DNA of 64,000 nt from positions 512,001-576,000 of the forward strand of contig CAVPLM010000005.1 in the NCBI GenBank assembly GCA_963706025.1, in the 5' to 3' direction. Source of the stretch: an uncultured Actinomycetes bacterium (GTDB taxonomy: Bacteria; Actinomycetota; Thermoleophilia; RBG-16-64-13). The position numbers and the translations under genes were made by a program. Positions 5,832-14,340 of the stretch are shown here, piece after piece. The notes below the pieces were generated by a model, which was not told where the DNA came from, searched no databases, and saw only the letters and a list, made by a program, of their open reading frames with translations. Each line of letters begins with the position of its first letter. Position 1 is the first letter of the stretch.

Positions 5832-6680
5832 TCAGCCGGCCAACGTGATGTTGTCGATCAGCCTCGTATCGCCGAACCAGACCGCCACAGCGATAAGACA
5901 CTCTCCCCTCACGGTCACTACCGGCGAGAGATCGGCCTTGTTGACTATCTCCACGTAATCGATCCGCCCCAGAGTCGCTTCGGCCAACACCGAGCGCACG
6001 GTGCCGTCCAGCACGGCTGCGTCACGCTCGCCGCCGTGTAGCAGCTCTCTCGCTGCCAGGAGTGCGCGGTAGAGAACGGGAGCTTCCTGCCGCTGCTCGG
6101 CGGTCAGGCGCGCATTGCGTGAGCTCAGGGCCAGACCGTCCGCCTCGCGTACGGTGGGACAGGGAACGATTTCCACCGCCAAGTTGAGATCGCGCGCCAT
6201 CCGCGTGACCACCACCAGTTGCTGGGCGTCCTTCTCGCCGAAATAGGCCCGGTCCGGACGGCAGATGTTGAGGAGTTTCGTCACCACGGTGCACACCCCG
6301 CGGAAGTGCCCGGGCCTTGATCTTCCACAGAGCCCGGCGGTCAGTCCCTCCAGATCCACCCACGTAGAGTAGCCTTCCGGGTACATCTCGAGCACGGATG
6401 GAGCGAAGATCAGGTCCGCCCCCGCCGCCGCGGCCAAATCTCGATCGTGCTCCAAAGGCCTGGGGTAGTGCCGCAGGTCCTCGCCCTGCCCGAACTGCGT
6501 CGGATTGACGAATATCGACACGATGACGACCCCGCCGTCCGCCCTGGCCTTGCGAATCAGAGAGAGGTGTCCCTCGTGCAGCGCCCCCATGGTGGGCACC
6601 AGTCCCACCGTCAGTCCGCGGGCGCGCGCCTGCTCGAGCGCGGCCCGCGTCGCAGCAGTGGTCGTCAGACAGCGGCTCAC
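5832..6680 (-). CDS. panC: Pantoate--beta-alanine ligase
   Basis: VPTMGALHEGH, SIFVNPTQF, RPGHFRGV, FGEKDAQQ, LSSRN, RLIDN. Confidence 0.97.
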   Translation of the reverse strand: MSRCLTTTAATRAALEQARARGLTVGLVPTMGALHEGHLSLIRKARADGGVVIVSIFVNPTQFGQGEDLRHYPRPLEHDRDLAAAAGADLIFAPSVLEMYPEGYSTWVDLEGLTAGLCGRSRPGHFRGVCTVVTKLLNICRPDRAYFGEKDAQQLVVVTRMARDLNLAVEIVPCPTVREADGLALSSRNARLTAEQRQEAPVLYRALLAARELLHGGERDAAVLDGTVRSVLAEATLGRIDYVEIVNKADLSPVVTVRGECLIAVAVWFGDTRLIDNITLAG

Positions 6681-7639
6681 GTCACGGACGCAAGGTCCTT
6701 CAAGGCCGGTGCTCCGCCGAGACCTTCCGCCACCCTCACTGCCCTACGAATGCTCATCGCCACAGCCTCGGCTGCGGCAGCCCCCACCTGGAACACGTTT
6801 GACGGTCTCTCGCCGGTGGCGAGAACGAACACGCAGTCCCCATCGACCGGCGTATGCACCGGATTGATCGCCCGGCCAAGTCCATCGTGACTCATCCGCG
6901 CCACGATCGAGCAATGCAGCTTGTCCATCTTGGCGTCGGTCAGGACGACCGACAGTGTGGTGCTCTCCATTGCCGCGAACGTCGGCGCCTCAGGCAAGGA
7001 AAGCAATAGTCTCGCGCTGTCCACGAAGGCATTGTCTCGCCTGGCACCGGCGAGGATGGCGCCATTTTCAGCGATTACGTCCCCGAGGGCGTTGACGACG
7101 GTCAAGGCGGCGACCGTCACCCCCCCGCCCAGAACCACAGTGGACAAGGCCAGGCCTCCCTTCATGAGACCACCCGCGCCCAGGATCTTGCCGACCGTGG
7201 CCCCGGTGCCGGCGCCCACCGAGCCCTCCTCGACGTGGAACCCCGCCGAATCGCAGGCCTGGTAGGCGTCCTCGTAGCTTGGGCAGGCCTGCGCGCTACC
7301 CAGTCCCAAGTCGTATATGACGGCCGCCGCCACCAGAGGAACCCGGGCGTACGGGGTGCGGTAACCGCAACCGCCCTCGCGCAGAAACGCAGTCACACCG
7401 GCGGCCGCCCCCAGCCCAGGGGCGCTCCCACCGGTCAGCAACACGGCGTGGATCTCGCCGACTGCGGCAAACGGCGACAGCAAAGCCGTCTCCAGAGTCC
7501 CCGGCGCACCGCCACGGATATCTACAGAGGCCGTCACCCCGGCAGGAGTGAGGATCACCGTGCATCCCGTCAGGCCCTCACGGTCAGAGAAATGACCGAC
7601 TGAGATCCCTTCCACCGGGAGCGCCAATGTCATGTCCAA
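6677..7639 (-). CDS. P1/S58 (DmpA-like) peptidase
   Basis: [39 protein letters not shown]. Confidence 0.88.
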
Positions 7640-7691: not shown

Positions 7692-8993
7692 TCACCGGGT
7701 GTTCTTCCGCATGCCCTCGAGGAACTCCGGGTTGGACTTGGTCTCTTTCAGCTTGTCGATGAGCAACTCAATAGCCGCATTGGGATCGAGCGCATGCAGC
7801 ACCGCCCTAAGCTTCCACACCATCTTCGCCTCGGCCGGGTCCATCAACAGCTCTTCTTTGCGCGTGCCGGAGTTCTCGATGTCGATGGCCGGGAAGATCC
7901 GCTTGTTGGCCAGTTGGCGAGTCAGACGTACCTCCCAGTTGCCTGTGCCCTTGAACTCCTCGAAGATGACCTCGTCCATCCGCGACCCCGTCTCGACCAG
8001 CGCTGTCGCCAGAATGGTAAGAGAGCCTCCTTCCTCGATATTCCGCGCCGCCCCGAAAAACTTCTTGGGTGGATAGAGAGCCGTCGAGTCGACCCCGCCC
8101 GAGAGTATGCGGCCGCTGGCCGGAGCCTGCAGGTTGTAGGCTCGGGCCATGCGGGTGATCGAATCCAGAAGGACCACCACGTCCTTGCCCACTTCCACCA
8201 GGCGTTTGACCCGTTCCAGCACCAGTTCGGTCACCTGCACGTGGTTCTCCCCCGGCTGATCGAAGGTCGAGCTCACCACCTCGCCGGTCACTGTGCGCTC
8301 CATGTCGGTGACCTCTTCCGGGCGCTCGTCCACGAGCAGCACCAGAAGGTGAACCTCCGGATTGTTGGTGGCGATGGCGTTGGCGATGTCCTTCAGGATG
8401 GTGGTCTTTCCCGCCTTGGGAGGGGAGACGATCAGCCCCCGCTGCCCCTTGCCGATGGGACTCAGCAGATCCATCACCCGGGCGGCTATCCGGTCGGGCG
8501 TCGTCTCCAGCCGCAGGCGTTCGTCAGGAAAGAGCGGCGTCAACGAGTCGAAGGTGGGGCGGTGACGAGCCTGTTCGGGATCGATGCCGTTCACCGATTG
8601 GATCTTGAGCAAGGCATGGTACTTCTCGTTGTCACGCGGGGTGCGCACCTGCCCCGTGATCTCGTCGCCCCGGCGCAATTTGAAACGCCGTATCTGCGAC
8701 AGCGACACGTAGATATCGGAGTCCGACTGCGTATAGCCCTGCGTGCGCAGGAACCCATAGCCATCGGGCAGTATGTCGAGCAACCCTGTGCGAAAATGCA
8801 GGCCCCGGTCCTGAGATTGCTCGTTTAGGATCTTCATGATCAGATCCTGCTTCGAGTACTTCCGGTAATTCTTGATACCCAGCTCGCCCGCGACCATGTG
8901 CAAGTCGGAGAGGAGCTTGGGCTCCAATTCGGCTAGGGACATCGTCTTACTTCCCACTGTTGGCTCATGTTCACCGTCCTTATGTTCGTTCAC
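7692..8993 (-). CDS. rho: Transcription termination factor Rho
   Basis: [43 protein letters not shown]. Confidence 0.98.
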
Positions 8994-9038: not shown

Positions 9039-10052
9039 CTATCTCGCGTCTAGGCTCACCCGCGGCCCTCCGTTACCCGCCCGGTGTATCGTCCTTACCA
9101 CACGTATCGCGTGACAGCGGGAGCAGAGAAGAAGCGTCTCGGAGCGTACTCCGTCGGAGCGGACATCTATGCCCCGCAGGAATCTGCCTCCGGTGACCGC
9201 GGTGGCCACGAATAGCACGCCATCTCCGGCCATGTCGCTCGTGGTCAGACGCGTCTCGATGTCCTCGATACCCGCGATCCTCACCTGCTCAACCTGATGA
9301 CGGGAGACCGGCCAGAAGCGGGCCTGCATCTCGCCCCCCAGACAGCGCAGGGCCGCGGCCGTCATGATGCCTTCGGTGGAGCCTCCGATGCCCACATACA
9401 AGTCGACACCGGCATCTCGCGTCGCCGCAGCGATGCCCGCCGACACGTCACCGTCCGCTATGAGTCTGAGCCGCGCGCCTGAACGCCTGATCTGAGCTAT
9501 CAGATCCTCATGGCGTGGCCGGTCGAGGACGACCACGTTGAGGTCGGCGGGCCGCCGTCCGAGGGCGGCGGCCACTGCGTTGATATTGTCGCCCATGGGA
9601 GCGTCGATGTCGATGGCCGCGGCCGCCTCACCGGCCACGATCAGCTTCTGCATGTACATCTCCGGCACGGCCATGATGCTGCCAGGCGGTCCGGCGGCCA
9701 GCATGCACAAGGCACCGTCCAGGCCGTGCCCCAGGGCGGCATGGCCCTCCAGCGGGTCCACCGCCAGATCCCATATCCCCTGTGGGTCTTCTTCGCTCCC
9801 CGGACCCACTTCGTGGCCCACTTCGTCTCCCACACACAGAGCACTGGACGGCTCTGTGGCTCCGTGACCGGTCACCACCCGTGCCTTGAACGGTGCCGGC
9901 ATCTGAGCAAGCTCAGCCGCCATGGCCTCTCTCGCGGCCTCGTCGCCAAGCAGGCCATCTCCCCTGCCTGCCCACTCGGCAGCCGCAAGACCACCGGCTT
10001 CCGTTACCAGCGCGAAGCGACCACAAATGCACCGTCCCTCAATAGTCCCCAC
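9039..10052 (-). CDS. glpX: Class II fructose-1,6-bisphosphatase (GlpX) family protein with a divergent active site
   Basis: VTEAGGLAA, AVDPLEG, YMQKL, LDRPRH, DGDV, GIGGSTEG, FVATAVT. Start set at GTG 10052, after a GAGGAG RBS. Confidence 0.8.
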   Translation of the reverse strand: MGTIEGRCICGRFALVTEAGGLAAAEWAGRGDGLLGDEAAREAMAAELAQMPAPFKARVVTGHGATEPSSALCVGDEVGHEVGPGSEEDPQGIWDLAVDPLEGHAALGHGLDGALCMLAAGPPGSIMAVPEMYMQKLIVAGEAAAAIDIDAPMGDNINAVAAALGRRPADLNVVVLDRPRHEDLIAQIRRSGARLRLIADGDVSAGIAAATRDAGVDLYVGIGGSTEGIMTAAALRCLGGEMQARFWPVSRHQVEQVRIAGIEDIETRLTTSDMAGDGVLFVATAVTGGRFLRGIDVRSDGVRSETLLLCSRCHAIRVVRTIHRAGNGGPRVSLDAR

Positions 10053-11019
10053 TGCCCAACTCCTCAGTCTGTTCGATGAGACCATACAAGGCGTCGACGA
10101 CCATCCCCACCGTGTCGTCGATGCTCACGTTGTCCACGACAAGTGTCCCTTCGGCTCCTGCCCGCTCAAGGATGAATTCCTGGATCTTGCGTATCTCCTC
10201 GAATCCCTTCAGGTAACGAGCAAACACCCTGCGCCCAGATGTCTCCTGCTCCCTCACCAAGAAATGGCTACGATGCAGATGCGAGTCGGTCACGGCCACG
10301 ACCAGGGGAAGCAAGAGAGCCTCCCCGCTCCGCTCTCGAGCTCCGATCGAGGCGAGCATCCCGGGAACCATGTGCACACCCTCCACTACCAGGCTGGTGC
10401 GCTCCTCTATCGCCCTATCCAACACGGCCAGCACACCGACATTGACCATCTCCACCTGCTCCATGAAACCTATCAAGTTCGAGTCTATGCCGACGCGCAA
10501 CGGGATCCGAACAGCCTTGTCCGCGTCGTACGACGAGTAGTGGATTGCCGGCATGAGGCTCTCGGAGAAGAAGGCCCTCATCACCTGCCGAATGGCGTCG
10601 GTGGAGATGATCCTCACCACCCCAAGCCGCTCCGCCACCTGGGCGGCGATCGTACTCTTGCCCACCCCGGTGGCTCCTCCGATCAGCACGATGACCGGCA
10701 TGTCCTCTCTAGCCAACCGATTCCAGGCGCGGTAGCGCTGCAGGTACCGTTGCCCTTCGCTCTCAGCCAACACCAGCTCCACCATCTGGCGTAGCCGGTC
10801 CACGCTCACCTCGCGGTCGAGCCCCTGCAGCAGCTGCCACTCCACATCCATGGCCACCCCAAAGGCCCTTTCCGGCGGTAGCCCGGTGGCGGTCAACGTG
10901 GTTGCCAGCAGTCCCTTCGAGAAAGGCACCTTGTGACCCTCTCTCACCAGTTGGATGGGGAAGTTCTCCGGCCTGGAAAGCCTGGCGCCCGTGTCTTGCC
11001 GGCCTTCGCCGCTGCCCAT
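10039..11019 (-). CDS. pgk2: 2-phosphoglycerate kinase (ATP-cone plus P-loop kinase)
   Basis: PFSKGLLA ATP-cone, LIGGATGVGKST, ISTDAIRQVMR, HYSSYDA, VEGVHMVPG, EIRKIQ. Confidence 0.88.
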   Translation of the reverse strand: MGSGEGRQDTGARLSRPENFPIQLVREGHKVPFSKGLLATTLTATGLPPERAFGVAMDVEWQLLQGLDREVSVDRLRQMVELVLAESEGQRYLQRYRAWNRLAREDMPVIVLIGGATGVGKSTIAAQVAERLGVVRIISTDAIRQVMRAFFSESLMPAIHYSSYDADKAVRIPLRVGIDSNLIGFMEQVEMVNVGVLAVLDRAIEERTSLVVEGVHMVPGMLASIGARERSGEALLLPLVVAVTDSHLHRSHFLVREQETSGRRVFARYLKGFEEIRKIQEFILERAGAEGTLVVDNVSIDDTVGMVVDALYGLIEQTEELGSGDY

Positions 11020-11023
11020 CCCG

Positions 11024-12406
11024 CTACACCCGCTTCTCGAAACGCGTTCTTGCCAACTGAGCCAACTCCTCCGCCACCTGAGCCAGACGCCCCTCGTGTC
11101 CGGGCGACACCTCGACAGGAAGGTTGTCGACGAACACCACTTCAAGTCCACGTGCTTCGGCTTCGGCGGCCACCATGTCGATGGCCGCAGCCTTGATCTC
11201 CGTCAGAACCGCGTCCACCCGCCCCATCTCCGGCCGCTCTAGATCGGCGCGCAATTCCGGCCGACTGGAGAGGTTCCCCGAGAACAGCTCCACTCGGCAG
11301 CCCCAGCGCTCCTCCATGTACCGCCTCAGCAACCCCTCCTGGACGCGAGGCGCCGAGGAGAAGAAGGCTACCCGTCTACCCTCGACCGGCTGCGCCGGGT
11401 GCGGCCTGAACACGACGGGAAGGACCTCTAACCCCGGTTTGACCTCGTTCACCGCGTCAAAGACTGCGCGCACCTTCTCCCTCGACGCTAGAGGCTCCTC
11501 GGCCATGGTCAGCACCAACGCATCGCTGGTTAGCAGGCGATATGTCCCCAGGTATCCGGCGATGTGTTCCACCGGCTGCTGGGCTCCGGCCACCAGCAGG
11601 CGCGCATCTGTGCCGACGGGCGGCAGAGTCGCCCCACTGCCCTCAAAGATCACCAGACCCGGGGCCAGGCTGTTGGCCAGTCGCGCCCCGGCAGCCACAT
11701 TTGAGACGAAGGGCTCTCCGGCCATGCCCCCGCCACATCTGCGGCACCCTACGGTCACCACCCGGCTAAGGACCGCATCCTCGAAGTGATCCGACGCCGC
11801 GTGCCGGCCCTCCCGACTCCAGGCCAGAAGATCCTCGACAGTCAGACCGACCCGAGCCCCGTCGATGATCTCGGGTTCCGCAGGACCGCCGCGCCCCATC
11901 GCCACGACCACCACTTCGTGCGCGTCTTCCCTGGTCGCCAAGCCCCGCAAGACCCGCGCCACGTAGCCGCTGATCGCCGTTTTGCCCACCCGCTTCCCCG
12001 TCCCGACGACGGAAAGCGAAGGACTTGCGCAAAGATGATCTGAGCTTGTAGGGCTGAAGTGGAAATCCGGACCAACGTAGCCTACGTTCCGCGCCAAGCT
12101 GTGGCTGATGAGACGGAAACGCACCTCGTATCCTAGCACCGGCTCATCGCTCAGGTCAACGACCACCTCCGGATCGAACATCTCGATGGCCCGGCCCAAG
12201 CCTCGGCTCAGATCCGGGTCGAACACTACAGGCAGACCATAGATTCTTTCGGCCGCAGCCTCTAGGTCATCGTCCCTGATCTTCTCGAACCCACCTAGGA
12301 ACAGGGCGCCCCGGAACTCGAAACGCTCCGCGGCTTGTCGTAGGGCGTCGACCACCACCGACGGATAGTGCTCCCCATCGATCAGAGCGACGGCCGGCTG
12401 CTTCAT
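11024..12406 (-). CDS. cpgS: Cyclic 2,3-diphosphoglycerate synthetase
   Basis: ALIDGEHYP, VVDLSDEPVL, GTGKRVGKTA, AMGRGGP, HAASDHFED, GCRRCGGGMAG, EGSGA, TEIKAAAID. Confidence 0.9.
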   Translation of the reverse strand: MKQPAVALIDGEHYPSVVVDALRQAAERFEFRGALFLGGFEKIRDDDLEAAAERIYGLPVVFDPDLSRGLGRAIEMFDPEVVVDLSDEPVLGYEVRFRLISHSLARNVGYVGPDFHFSPTSSDHLCASPSLSVVGTGKRVGKTAISGYVARVLRGLATREDAHEVVVVAMGRGGPAEPEIIDGARVGLTVEDLLAWSREGRHAASDHFEDAVLSRVVTVGCRRCGGGMAGEPFVSNVAAGARLANSLAPGLVIFEGSGATLPPVGTDARLLVAGAQQPVEHIAGYLGTYRLLTSDALVLTMAEEPLASREKVRAVFDAVNEVKPGLEVLPVVFRPHPAQPVEGRRVAFFSSAPRVQEGLLRRYMEERWGCRVELFSGNLSSRPELRADLERPEMGRVDAVLTEIKAAAIDMVAAEAEARGLEVVFVDNLPVEVSPGHEGRLAQVAEELAQLARTRFEKRV

Positions 12407-13203
12407 GGCCCAGGCTCTGCCTCAATGGGGAGACCATTGCGCAGATAGGCCTTCGAGGCTGCGTCGAACTCGACGATCACCTCCGCCCCATGGAAGGGAT
12501 ACCGGCGCGATATCGTCACGTGATCGCCTAGGATCTCGATGACGTTGTAGCAGGGTTTCGTGTCGCCCCTGAGCCGCAGAGTAGCGACGGTCCCAGTGTT
12601 CACGACGAACATGTTCTCGAGACGCCACGCGTAGGGCACGTGCTTGTGGCCGGAGAGTACGAGTTCCACACCGCACTCCACCAGCACCTCCAGCACGTCA
12701 CCTGCATCGTTGACGATGTTACGCTCCCGCCCGGTGCCCGGGATGGGAAGCAGATGGTGATGCAGGACAAAGATCTGGAAGTCTCCGGGGCACTTTGTGA
12801 ACGCTTCCCTCATCCAGGGATAGCGGTGCCGGCCGATGCGCCCGTAGTCGAGGTCGGGCTCGGTAGAGTCGACGCCCACCAACGTGACGCCTTTCTTGCG
12901 GATCACGTTCTCCCGGGATGCGAACAACCGCTCAAAATGTGCGTAGCCGACGTTTCGGCTGTCGTGGTTGCCGGGCACCACCAGGACGTCAGGGCAGTCG
13001 AGCCGGTCGAGATACTCGCGCGCCTCTCGGAATTCCTGGCGATACCCCATGTTGGTCAGGTCTCCGGTGACAACCACGACGTCGGGGGCCAGGTCGTTCA
13101 CCTCCACCAGGGCCCGGTCCAGCAGATTGGGCACGAAGTACTGGGAGCCCGTGTGCAGGTCGGACAGGTGGGCGATGACACAGGAGCGAGTCTTGTTGTC
13201 CAT
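12403..13203 (-). CDS. Calcineurin-like metallophosphoesterase (CpdA/Icc-like)
   Basis: SDLH, TGDLT, PGNHD, HHH, SGHKH. Confidence 0.9.
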   Translation of the reverse strand: MDNKTRSCVIAHLSDLHTGSQYFVPNLLDRALVEVNDLAPDVVVVTGDLTNMGYRQEFREAREYLDRLDCPDVLVVPGNHDSRNVGYAHFERLFASRENVIRKKGVTLVGVDSTEPDLDYGRIGRHRYPWMREAFTKCPGDFQIFVLHHHLLPIPGTGRERNIVNDAGDVLEVLVECGVELVLSGHKHVPYAWRLENMFVVNTGTVATLRLRGDTKPCYNVIEILGDHVTISRRYPFHGAEVIVEFDAASKAYLRNGLPIEAEPGP

Positions 13204-13272: not shown

Positions 13273-14340
13273 CTACTCAGCGCTCGCTATGATCTCCTCC
13301 ACCGCCGCCAGATCAGCCGGACAATGGATGATCGGCCGTGACTGGTCGATGGCGGTCTGTGGATCCTTCAAACCATGGCCGGTAAGAACCGCTACCAACG
13401 TATCACCGAAGGGCAATCCGGTGCTGCGGTACTTGAGCAGCCCGGCCACGCTGGCCGCCGAAGCGGGCTCGCAGAACACGCCCTCCTTCTGGGCCAGGAG
13501 TCGTTGTGCGGCCAGTATCTCCTCGTCGGTCACATCGCGTATCGCGCCGTGCGACTCGCACGCGGCCGCCAGGGCTTCTTCCGCTCGGGCCGGATTGCCG
13601 ATGCGGATGGCCGTCGCGACCGTCTCCGGCTTCTCCACCACATGTCCGCACACCAAGGGGTTGGCCCCCTCGGCCTGGAAACCCCACACCACCGGCAGCC
13701 GTCCGGCCAGCCCATTCTGGTGGTACTCGCGGAAACCCTTCCAGTACGACGTGATGTTGCCCGCGTTGCCCACAGGGATGGAGAGCATAGCGGGGGCCTC
13801 CCCCAGACGGTCGACGATCTCAAAGGCCGCCGTCTTCTGTCCCTCGATCCGGTAGGGGTTGAGAGAGTTCACCAGGGTTATGGGCTGCCGCTCCGAGATC
13901 TCCTTGACGTATTCCAGCGCGAGATCGAAATTGCCCTCGATCGCGATCGCCACGGCCCCGTGCATGAGCGCCTGCGACAACTTGCCCATGGCTATCTTGC
14001 CTTCAGGTATCAGTACGACACAGCGCATTCCGGCCCGGGCCGCGTACGCGGCCGCGGAGGCCGAAGTGTTGCCCGTCGAAGCGCAGATGACCGCCGTCGC
14101 GCCTTCTTCCAAGGCCTTGGTGATGGCCACGGTCATACCCCGGTCTTTGAACGATCCCGTAGGATTGGTCGCCTCGTACTTGAGGTACACGCGGCAACCC
14201 AGCTCCTTGCTCAACCACTCGGCCGGGATCAGCGGAGTGCTGCCCTCACCCAGGCTGGCCGGAACGGTGTCGGGCTTCAAGGGCAGGTAACGGCGATACC
14301 GCTCGACCACCCCAAAGGGACGCTCGTCCCCCGCGCCCAT
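13273..14340 (-). CDS. thrC: Threonine synthase
   Basis: [35 protein letters not shown]. Confidence 0.96.

Follow-up and report, generated by a model that had tools for sequence, protein, structure and literature searches.

Probable cyclic 2,3-diphosphoglycerate synthesis genes and a linked metallophosphoesterase, a candidate hydrolase, in an uncultured member of the Actinomycetota

A compact array of four minus-strand genes separates thrC from rho in a 64,000-nucleotide stretch of DNA from an uncultured Actinomycetes bacterium (Thermoleophilia; assembly GCA_963706025.1, contig CAVPLM010000005.1, positions 512,001 to 576,000), termed the window here. The genes specify a metallophosphoesterase (MPE), a homologue of cyclic 2,3-diphosphoglycerate (cDPG) synthetase (CpgS), a homologue of 2-phosphoglycerate kinase and a GlpX-like protein. 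The favored explanation, which is accorded an even chance, is that the four genes form one unit that would make and turn over cDPG in this organism. Genomic linkage places the MPE among the accessory enzymes of the cDPG pathway, and the protein is a good candidate for the cDPG hydrolase. Overall, bacterial genes for cDPG synthesis accompanied by a phosphoesterase that may be the hydrolase constitute a well supported hypothesis.

The probable cDPG synthesis genes

The genes of the array and the junction between the first two are as follows.

12403-13203, minus strand: metallophosphoesterase (MPE), 266 amino acids, class III phosphodiesterase type; Pfam Metallophos PF00149, E 3.9e-18
12403-12406, minus strand: ATGA overlap of the MPE stop codon and the cpgS start codon, read from the sequence
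11024-12406, minus strand: cpgS, cyclic 2,3-diphosphoglycerate synthetase homologue, 460 amino acids; PDB 8ORK/8ORU, E 4.3e-116
10039-11019, minus strand: 2-phosphoglycerate kinase homologue, 326 amino acids from the ATG at 11019; ATP-cone and P-loop
9039-10085, minus strand: GlpX-like protein, 348 amino acids; Pfam FBPase_glpX PF03320, E 8.6e-95

The genes follow one another with nearly no spacing, an arrangement that is far from chance. A first-pass annotation of the DNA had described four packed genes between thrC and rho and an ATGA overlap of the MPE gene with the cpgS start; the four were located at that place, all on the minus strand, and the overlap is real. The open reading frame of the kinase extends from position 11151. 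Because relatives align only from approximately residue 45 onward and ATG 11019 follows the cpgS stop codon by four bases, this ATG is the likely start and the gene was placed at 10039-11019. The ATG of the GlpX-like gene at 10085 produces a 47-nucleotide overlap with the end of the kinase gene.

The CpgS protein matched no Pfam or NCBIfam model, and its residues 5-452 aligned with chain residues 7-452 of the cDPG synthetase structure from Methanothermus fervidus (8ORK/8ORU). For that enzyme, PMC10690619 names the positions that contact ADP, Mg and 2,3-diphosphoglycerate (2,3-DPG): K145, R146 and T150 of the Walker A motif, the Mg ligand D208, E45/K46 of the partner subunit which touch 2,3-DPG, and the ATP-contacting residues E305, P335, T353 and E404. 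In the alignment with 8ORK, the window protein is identical at K145, R146, T150, D208, E45 and K46 and at the ATP contacts E305 and E404, has Ser in place of T353, and could not be mapped at P335. Thus, eight of nine mappable ligand positions are identical. The kinase matched the NCBIfam 2-phosphoglycerate kinase models NF008994 (E 1.9e-83) and NF003259 (E 2.1e-81) and missed the curated equivalog cut-off of each (280.7 bits vs 603 and 273.7 bits vs 343, respectively). It consists of an ATP-cone (Pfam 29.5 bits) and a P-loop domain, and the neighbor of cpgS in Thermococci is built alike. Among 75 loci with a long enough downstream flank, the kinase gene immediately follows cpgS in 70.

The homology of CpgS and its pairing with the kinase bear out the earlier description of a bacterial pair of archaeal-type genes for cDPG synthesis. 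The kinase would phosphorylate 2-phosphoglycerate to 2,3-DPG, as its homology suggests, and CpgS, judged by strong homology and the conserved ligand residues, would close 2,3-DPG to the cyclic pyrophosphate with ATP. The pair resembles that of M. fervidus in the full-length match of CpgS, in the retention of the Walker A, Mg ligand and substrate-contact residues, and in the adjacency of cpgS to a kinase gene with ATP-cone and P-loop. It differs in that the host is bacterial and not a hyperthermophile, its relatives being mostly metagenome bins from soil, sediment and digesters; in that the genes are set with two extra genes within a thrC-to-rho array; and in that the kinase falls below the curated family cut-offs. 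Whether the bacterial homologues of CpgS and the kinase instead make a product other than cDPG was also weighed. The abstract of PMC10690619 describes cDPG as exclusive to hyperthermophilic archaeal methanogens, and the kinase, besides its subthreshold scores, has a mevalonate-3-phosphate 5-kinase model among its matches, but the identity of eight of nine mappable ligand residues and a kinase-synthetase pairing like that in archaea make a different product very doubtful.

Co-occurrence of the metallophosphoesterase with cpgS

Relatives of cpgS were collected in a scan of one genome per species, and the best 80 of 114 relatives were analyzed. These 80 derive mostly from bins labeled Thermoleophilia, Gaiellales, Acidimicrobiia or Geothermincolia, and include a few from other bacterial phyla, the Thermococci and one Thorarchaeota bin; the nearest relatives of the window host are labeled Gaiellales or Thermoleophilia. 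An upstream flank of 800 nucleotides or more was available at 77 of the 80 loci; at 63 of these the MPE gene immediately precedes cpgS on the same strand. At L031 the MPE gene overlaps the cpgS start, which brings the number to 64 of 77 in all. The MPE gene likewise is upstream of cpgS in nine of nine further loci from two other families. Long open frames that might have been Rosetta-stone fusions of MPE and CpgS were rejected as upstream extensions in high-GC DNA.

Presence and absence were compared in 401 evenly sampled genomes of the Actinomycetota, the phylum of the window host, spanning 78 families and 249 genera, with a threshold of E <= 1e-25 for MPE. The tallies take in 14 genomes flagged as unpublished (G318, G001, G226, G048, G239, G018, G174, G343, G088, G120, G148, G082, G268 and G391), with cpgS in 14 of 14 and MPE in 13 of 14. 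Overall, cpgS was found in 228 genomes (149 genera) and MPE in 227: both were present in 224 and neither in 170, with cpgS only in four (G195, G281, G391 and G019) and MPE only in three (G117, G270 and G315). Both genes are missing from whole families, including f14 (0/21), f15 (0/19) and f20 (0/13). The contig stops on the 5' side of cpgS in G195, G281 and G391, and in G019 cpgS is interrupted by an in-frame TAG, with a gene for peptidase S49 in the place of the MPE gene. As three of the cpgS-only cases are contig ends and the fourth cpgS is interrupted, no intact cpgS is shown without MPE among the 401 sampled genomes. In the MPE-only genome G270, the contig stops just past the MPE gene.

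A second arrangement was found in the Thermococci. At these loci cpgS and the kinase gene are accompanied by a CBS-pair gene (136-139 amino acids) followed by a gene for a fused double-Metallophos protein (503-507 amino acids), the N-terminal domain of which is 37-42% identical to the window MPE. The CBS and double-MPE unit occurs in either orientation relative to cpgS; it lies beside cpgS and the kinase gene at L075 (8159-10077) and L076 (8249-10188), inverted between the two genomes. The presence of a CBS pair is suggestive of regulation by adenine nucleotides. The likeness to the window is the linkage of the CpgS, kinase and MPE families, whereas the Thermococci cluster has a duplicated, fused MPE that follows a CBS-pair gene and is located downstream of the kinase, and it contains no GlpX-like gene. 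In a sample of 133 Thermococci genomes, which was identical when selected at the level of phylum or class, 96 had both genes, one had cpgS only, 13 had MPE only and 23 had neither. The cpgS-only genome, G498, has a partial cpgS at a contig end. In at least ten genomes (G448 and G450 to G458), cpgS and MPE share a contig but are separated by 5 to 745 kb. In G531 (C1:489024-490534), a genome without cpgS, the double MPE gene is in two pieces with an in-frame TGA, and may have decayed after cpgS loss. Taken together, the co-occurrence and adjacency in the Actinomycetota and the independent arrangement in the Thermococci strongly support the association of this phosphoesterase with cpgS and the kinase gene, a check that the first-pass annotation had proposed.

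The metallophosphoesterase as candidate cDPG hydrolase

The metal-binding residues of the MPE, D15, H17, D48, N79, H80, H148-150, H186 and H188, are invariant among 44 aligned sequences, and the protein has all five metallophosphoesterase motifs for metal binding (DxH, GD, GNHD/E, H and GHxH). In the same alignment R83, R159 and R212 never vary and R125 and R161 rarely do; these arginines would fit a polyanionic substrate. An AlphaFold 2 model of the protein (pLDDT 88) was closest in fold to the class III phosphodiesterases Rv0805 (3IB7, TM score 0.74, E 4.9e-16; also 2HY1), GpdQ (3D03 and 2ZO9, TM 0.66-0.74) and Lmo2642 (2XMO), with TM scores of 0.66-0.74 and Foldseek E values of ~1e-15 across the group, and a sequence search agreed. 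These nearest folds are phosphodiesterases of cyclic or disubstituted phosphates, in keeping with the proposed chemistry. The likeness to class III phosphodiesterases has limits: identity is 18-23%, the NCBIfam CpdA model NF008359 scored 44.3 bits against a cut-off of 225 and thus short of the equivalog level, and the MPE group possesses its own invariant residues, including GNHDSRNVGY and PGTGRERN among the 44 sequences. The ratio of nonsynonymous to synonymous substitution rates (dN/dS), calculated from pairs in which dS was close to saturation, was 0.02-0.10 for MPE, the most constrained of the four genes, compared with 0.12-0.17 for cpgS and 0.09-0.21 for the GlpX-like gene.

A cDPG hydrolase activity in Methanothermobacter thermautotrophicus is described in the review PMC1224877 as membrane-bound and inhibited by K+ and phosphate, and is credited there to van Alebeek 1994 and Sastry 1992. 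A full-text search, the reach of which excluded most subscription journals, located neither a gene assigned to cDPG hydrolase nor a paper on a bacterial cDPG pathway; the former agrees with the earlier statement that the hydrolase gene had not been established. The reaction proposed for the MPE, conversion of cDPG to 2,3-DPG as an exit from the cDPG pool, is the one ascribed to the methanogen activity. The two-metal site of the MPE would open the cyclic pyrophosphate, and stored carbon and phosphate would thereby be recovered.

The MPE might act in the pathway on another substrate, either as a 2,3-DPG phosphomonoesterase or by removing a by-product of the kinase or of the synthetase. The co-occurrence data are silent on substrate and fit this proposal equally, metallophosphoesterases include monoesterases such as the purple acid phosphatases that also were among the fold matches, and, with the GlpX-like protein degenerate as described below, a turnover cycle would lack an assigned 2,3-DPG phosphatase. 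However, the closest relatives by sequence and fold, GpdQ, Rv0805 and Lmo2642, are diesterases and, by reasoning only, cDPG is a disubstituted pyrophosphate when viewed from each phosphorus. Another substrate within the pathway is regarded as unlikely, albeit the least unlikely of the alternatives considered here.

Several observations weigh against the assignment of the MPE as cDPG hydrolase. Related genomes are not independent and much of the co-occurrence and adjacency is shared descent, which overstates the independence of the tallies. In L029, a Gaiellales genome, cpgS, the kinase gene, the GlpX-like gene and rho are present and no MPE gene was detected at E 1e-10. The MPE-only genomes G117 and G315 have MPE relatives that are 48-52% identical and have unrelated neighbors. 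Among the 13 MPE-only Thermococci genomes, the relatives are 48% identical in six, 35-38% in five and 79% in G449, and the gene is broken in G531. Four of five genomes from other phyla (Anaerolineae, Acetothermia, Calditrichota and one uncultured bacterium) carry cpgS without a close MPE; in the fifth, the Thorarchaeota bin, a 45%-identical MPE is on another contig and does not adjoin cpgS. In favor of the assignment, the occurrence of cpgS without MPE in other phyla means that MPE is not needed for synthesis, which fits an accessory or catabolic role. In family f19, extra MPE copies that are 54-56% identical to the window protein adjoin a gene for S-adenosyl-methionine (SAM) hydroxide adenosyltransferase at three of three loci and share the invariant residues of the MPE. 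The backbone of a quick MPE tree was unresolved, so that a single clade of cpgS-linked MPEs was neither shown nor rejected. The methanogen hydrolase is described as membrane-bound in PMC1224877, whereas the window MPE has no transmembrane-like stretch (highest 19-residue Kyte-Doolittle mean, 1.29). The genomes compared for the MPE-cpgS link left out the methanogens known to make cDPG; an ESM Atlas search aimed at methanogen relatives returned actinobacterial clusters only, and the available portion of the M. fervidus genome paper contains no mention of neighboring genes. Finally, it is wasteful to produce a synthetase together with an enzyme that hydrolyzes its product unless regulation intervenes and, because the synthesis and breakdown genes would be co-transcribed, the hydrolase would need control after translation.

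Certain of these points favor the view that the MPE acts as a general phosphodiesterase on cyclic nucleotides or other substrates and, chemically unconnected with cDPG, stands beside cpgS through inherited order or shared regulation: its closest relatives of known structure are cyclic-nucleotide phosphodiesterases, paralogues with the same invariant residues adjoin SAM hydroxide adenosyltransferase genes, and each of MPE and cpgS exists in genomes without the other. This view is thought decidedly unlikely in light of the near-perfect match of presence and absence across 78 families of the phylum, the persistence of adjacency in the Thermococci through inversion of the CBS-MPE unit, the broken MPE in the cpgS-lacking genome G531, and the placement in the quick tree of the paralogues and MPE-only copies outside two groups of cpgS-adjacent sequences.

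Two side observations concern these loci. The MPE paralogue is found with a PF01887 gene at L123 (7191-8924), L124 (6891-8636) and L125 (5853-7492), which constitutes a second conserved pairing of this phosphoesterase group. At L029 (1256-5819), cpgS is preceded by two PPDK-like genes, each with the N-terminal domain of pyruvate phosphate dikinase.

The GlpX-like protein

The GlpX-like protein matched PF03320 over profile positions 7-307 of 307 and scored 231.9 bits with TIGR00330, for which the cut-off of 259.3 was not reached. The GlpX of Mycobacterium tuberculosis has ten catalytic-site residues and is inactivated by the T84A change, according to PMC5892879; M. tuberculosis numbering is used for these positions here. 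In the window protein the catalytic Thr84 (Thr90 in Escherichia coli) is replaced by His115 and the metal ligand Glu51 by Ala76. These and the other catalytic-site positions were examined further in the 46 cluster-linked copies, defined as those that adjoin the kinase gene. The 6-phosphate triad of Tyr114, Arg159 and Arg161 is kept in 46 of 46, as are Asp183 and Glu208. Thr84 is retained in 4, Glu51 in 6, Asp79 in 27 and Asp27 in 23 of the 46, and all ten residues persist in two copies (L032 and L036). The Thr84 position is occupied by P, H, R, A, L, T, Q, I, M, V or S, and the replacements at Glu51 and Asp79 differ even among relatives that are 82-84% identical to the window protein. In a comparison group of 30 GlpX genes from other positions in genomes of the class, chosen for the highest Pfam scores (a criterion that favors conserved residues), Thr is present in 30 of 30 and all ten residues in 26.

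The cluster-linked copies also possess a four-cysteine motif composed of CxC near the N-terminus and CxxC near the C-terminus, with Cys in 46, 45, 45 and 45 of the 46 copies at the successive positions. The motif is present in one of the 30 non-cluster copies, L115, which itself is between a kinase gene and rho. In comparison with class II fructose-1,6-bisphosphatase (FBPase) GlpX (M. tuberculosis 6AYY; E. coli 3D1R), the window protein shares the full-length domain, the 6-phosphate triad, Asp183 and Glu208, and differs in the Thr84 to His and Glu51 to Ala changes, at positions that are unconstrained in its relatives, and in the gain of CxC...CxxC, which is missing from 29 of the 30 non-cluster copies. 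No class I or class V FBPase was detected in the window's genome (92% complete), in which the GlpX-like protein is the only FBPase homologue found. The family of the window host has the degenerate copy alone, and family f7 has a canonical GlpX copy in addition to a cluster copy in which Arg replaces Thr84 and Gln replaces Glu208. The dN/dS values of 0.09-0.21 indicate that the gene is under purifying selection and is not decaying. A complex prediction for the GlpX-like protein and the kinase scored 0.01, which is no evidence either way.

As the catalytic Thr and the metal ligands vary freely across the 46 copies, the pattern fits lost catalysis and not a new conserved specificity. The GlpX-like protein most likely is a non-catalytic protein which, with its sugar-phosphate-binding residues kept and four cysteines gained, would bind a ligand or metal; perhaps, as a guess, it is a sensor for the pathway. 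The first-pass annotation had proposed instead that the altered GlpX dephosphorylates 2,3-DPG, and this is not supported, given the retention of Thr in 4 of 46 copies and of all ten residues in 2 of 46, and the His and Ala in the window protein. Of its overall interpretation, the gene identities, the archaeal-type synthesis pair and the link between MPE and cpgS stood, and the role of GlpX as 2,3-DPG phosphatase found no support. An active phosphatase of changed specificity, for instance for 2,3-DPG, that employs His115 and other residues might still account for the purifying selection, the invariance of Y114, R159, R161, D183 and E208, the status of the protein as the only FBPase homologue in a 92%-complete genome, and the full complement of ten residues at L032 and L036. 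However, T84A abolishes the activity of the M. tuberculosis enzyme (PMC5892879), eleven different residues occupy the Thr84 position, Glu51 and Asp79 vary among close relatives, and a new specificity should bring new conserved residues. Activity of this type seems highly improbable.

A separate observation concerns the same position in the gene order: at L070 (8434-9081) and L122 (9631-10278), from other actinobacterial classes, a 215-amino-acid transaldolase/fructose-6-phosphate aldolase (FSA) gene is located between the kinase gene and rho. The record that holds the L070 cluster is labeled Acidimicrobium ferrooxidans.

Possible role of the cluster

Relatives of cpgS in 228 of 401 genomes of one bacterial phylum contrast with the view, expressed in the literature searched, of cDPG as a solute of hyperthermophilic methanogens. 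The MPE provides a concrete and easily cloned candidate for the cDPG breakdown gene, one linked to cpgS in both bacteria and archaea. If the assignment of the MPE is confirmed, the role of cDPG in mesophiles would shift toward storage or regulation and away from heat protection, and biotechnological production of cDPG, for which PMC12136491 deals with a one-step enzymatic method, would have to avoid the host hydrolase. Confirmation of the GlpX-like protein as non-catalytic would furnish a clear case of a metabolic enzyme that has been turned to such a state within a pathway operon. A broader proposal, speculative and well toward the unlikely side, is that cDPG in many non-thermophilic Actinomycetota is a rapid-turnover pool that acts as a buffer for phosphate, carbon and energy or as a regulatory metabolite and not as a bulk heat protectant. 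A dedicated synthetase-hydrolase pair would set its level in the manner of PFK-2/FBPase-2 or Rel/SpoT, with the MPE as the missing hydrolase and the four-cysteine pseudo-FBPase as a gating sensor of redox state or sugar phosphates.

Neighboring genes and assembly quality

The array is flanked by two genes that matched their family models above the cut-off.

13273-14340, minus strand: thrC, upstream neighbor; TIGR00260, E 4.7e-94
7692-8993, minus strand: rho, downstream neighbor; TIGR00767, E 1.6e-199

The genes lysA and hom are upstream of thrC. The genes downstream of rho, at 5832-7639 of the window, look unremarkable: one for a DmpA-like S58 peptidase, and panC. Within the array, open reading frames on the opposite strand had no Pfam match, the DNA had no Rfam match, a scan for promoter-like and terminator-like sites gave numbers at chance level, and PADLOC reported nothing meaningful. 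One sediment metatranscriptome run contained two 151-nucleotide contigs inside the MPE gene (12727-13010), with one mismatch each, and next to no cover of the rest of the array; these contigs give neither strand nor level and may be DNA carry-over.

A canonical thrB was not found in the window's genome, where the weak GHMP match is IspE. The empty thrB slot was considered as a hint that the array functions in threonine synthesis and was discarded, given the identity of the GHMP match and the presence elsewhere in the genome of a 'proposed homoserine kinase' (ApgM-like). The ApgM-like gene is on another contig (G000 C11:28010-29253; L126 5011-6320), looks frameshifted, and matches both TIGR02535 'proposed homoserine kinase' and cofactor-independent phosphoglycerate mutase. 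In the surrounding region (L126; G000 C11:23000-35000), an aminotransferase is in two open reading frames, and truncation affects both a pyrophosphatase gene and the ApgM-like gene. The assembly, with an estimated contamination of 7.3%, may carry frameshift errors. The ApgM-like gene could serve threonine synthesis or could supply 2-phosphoglycerate to the cDPG genes. At the Acidimicrobiia-type loci L070 (3959-5143) and L122 (2963-4153), a member of the ApgM-like family is located exactly between thrC and the MPE gene.

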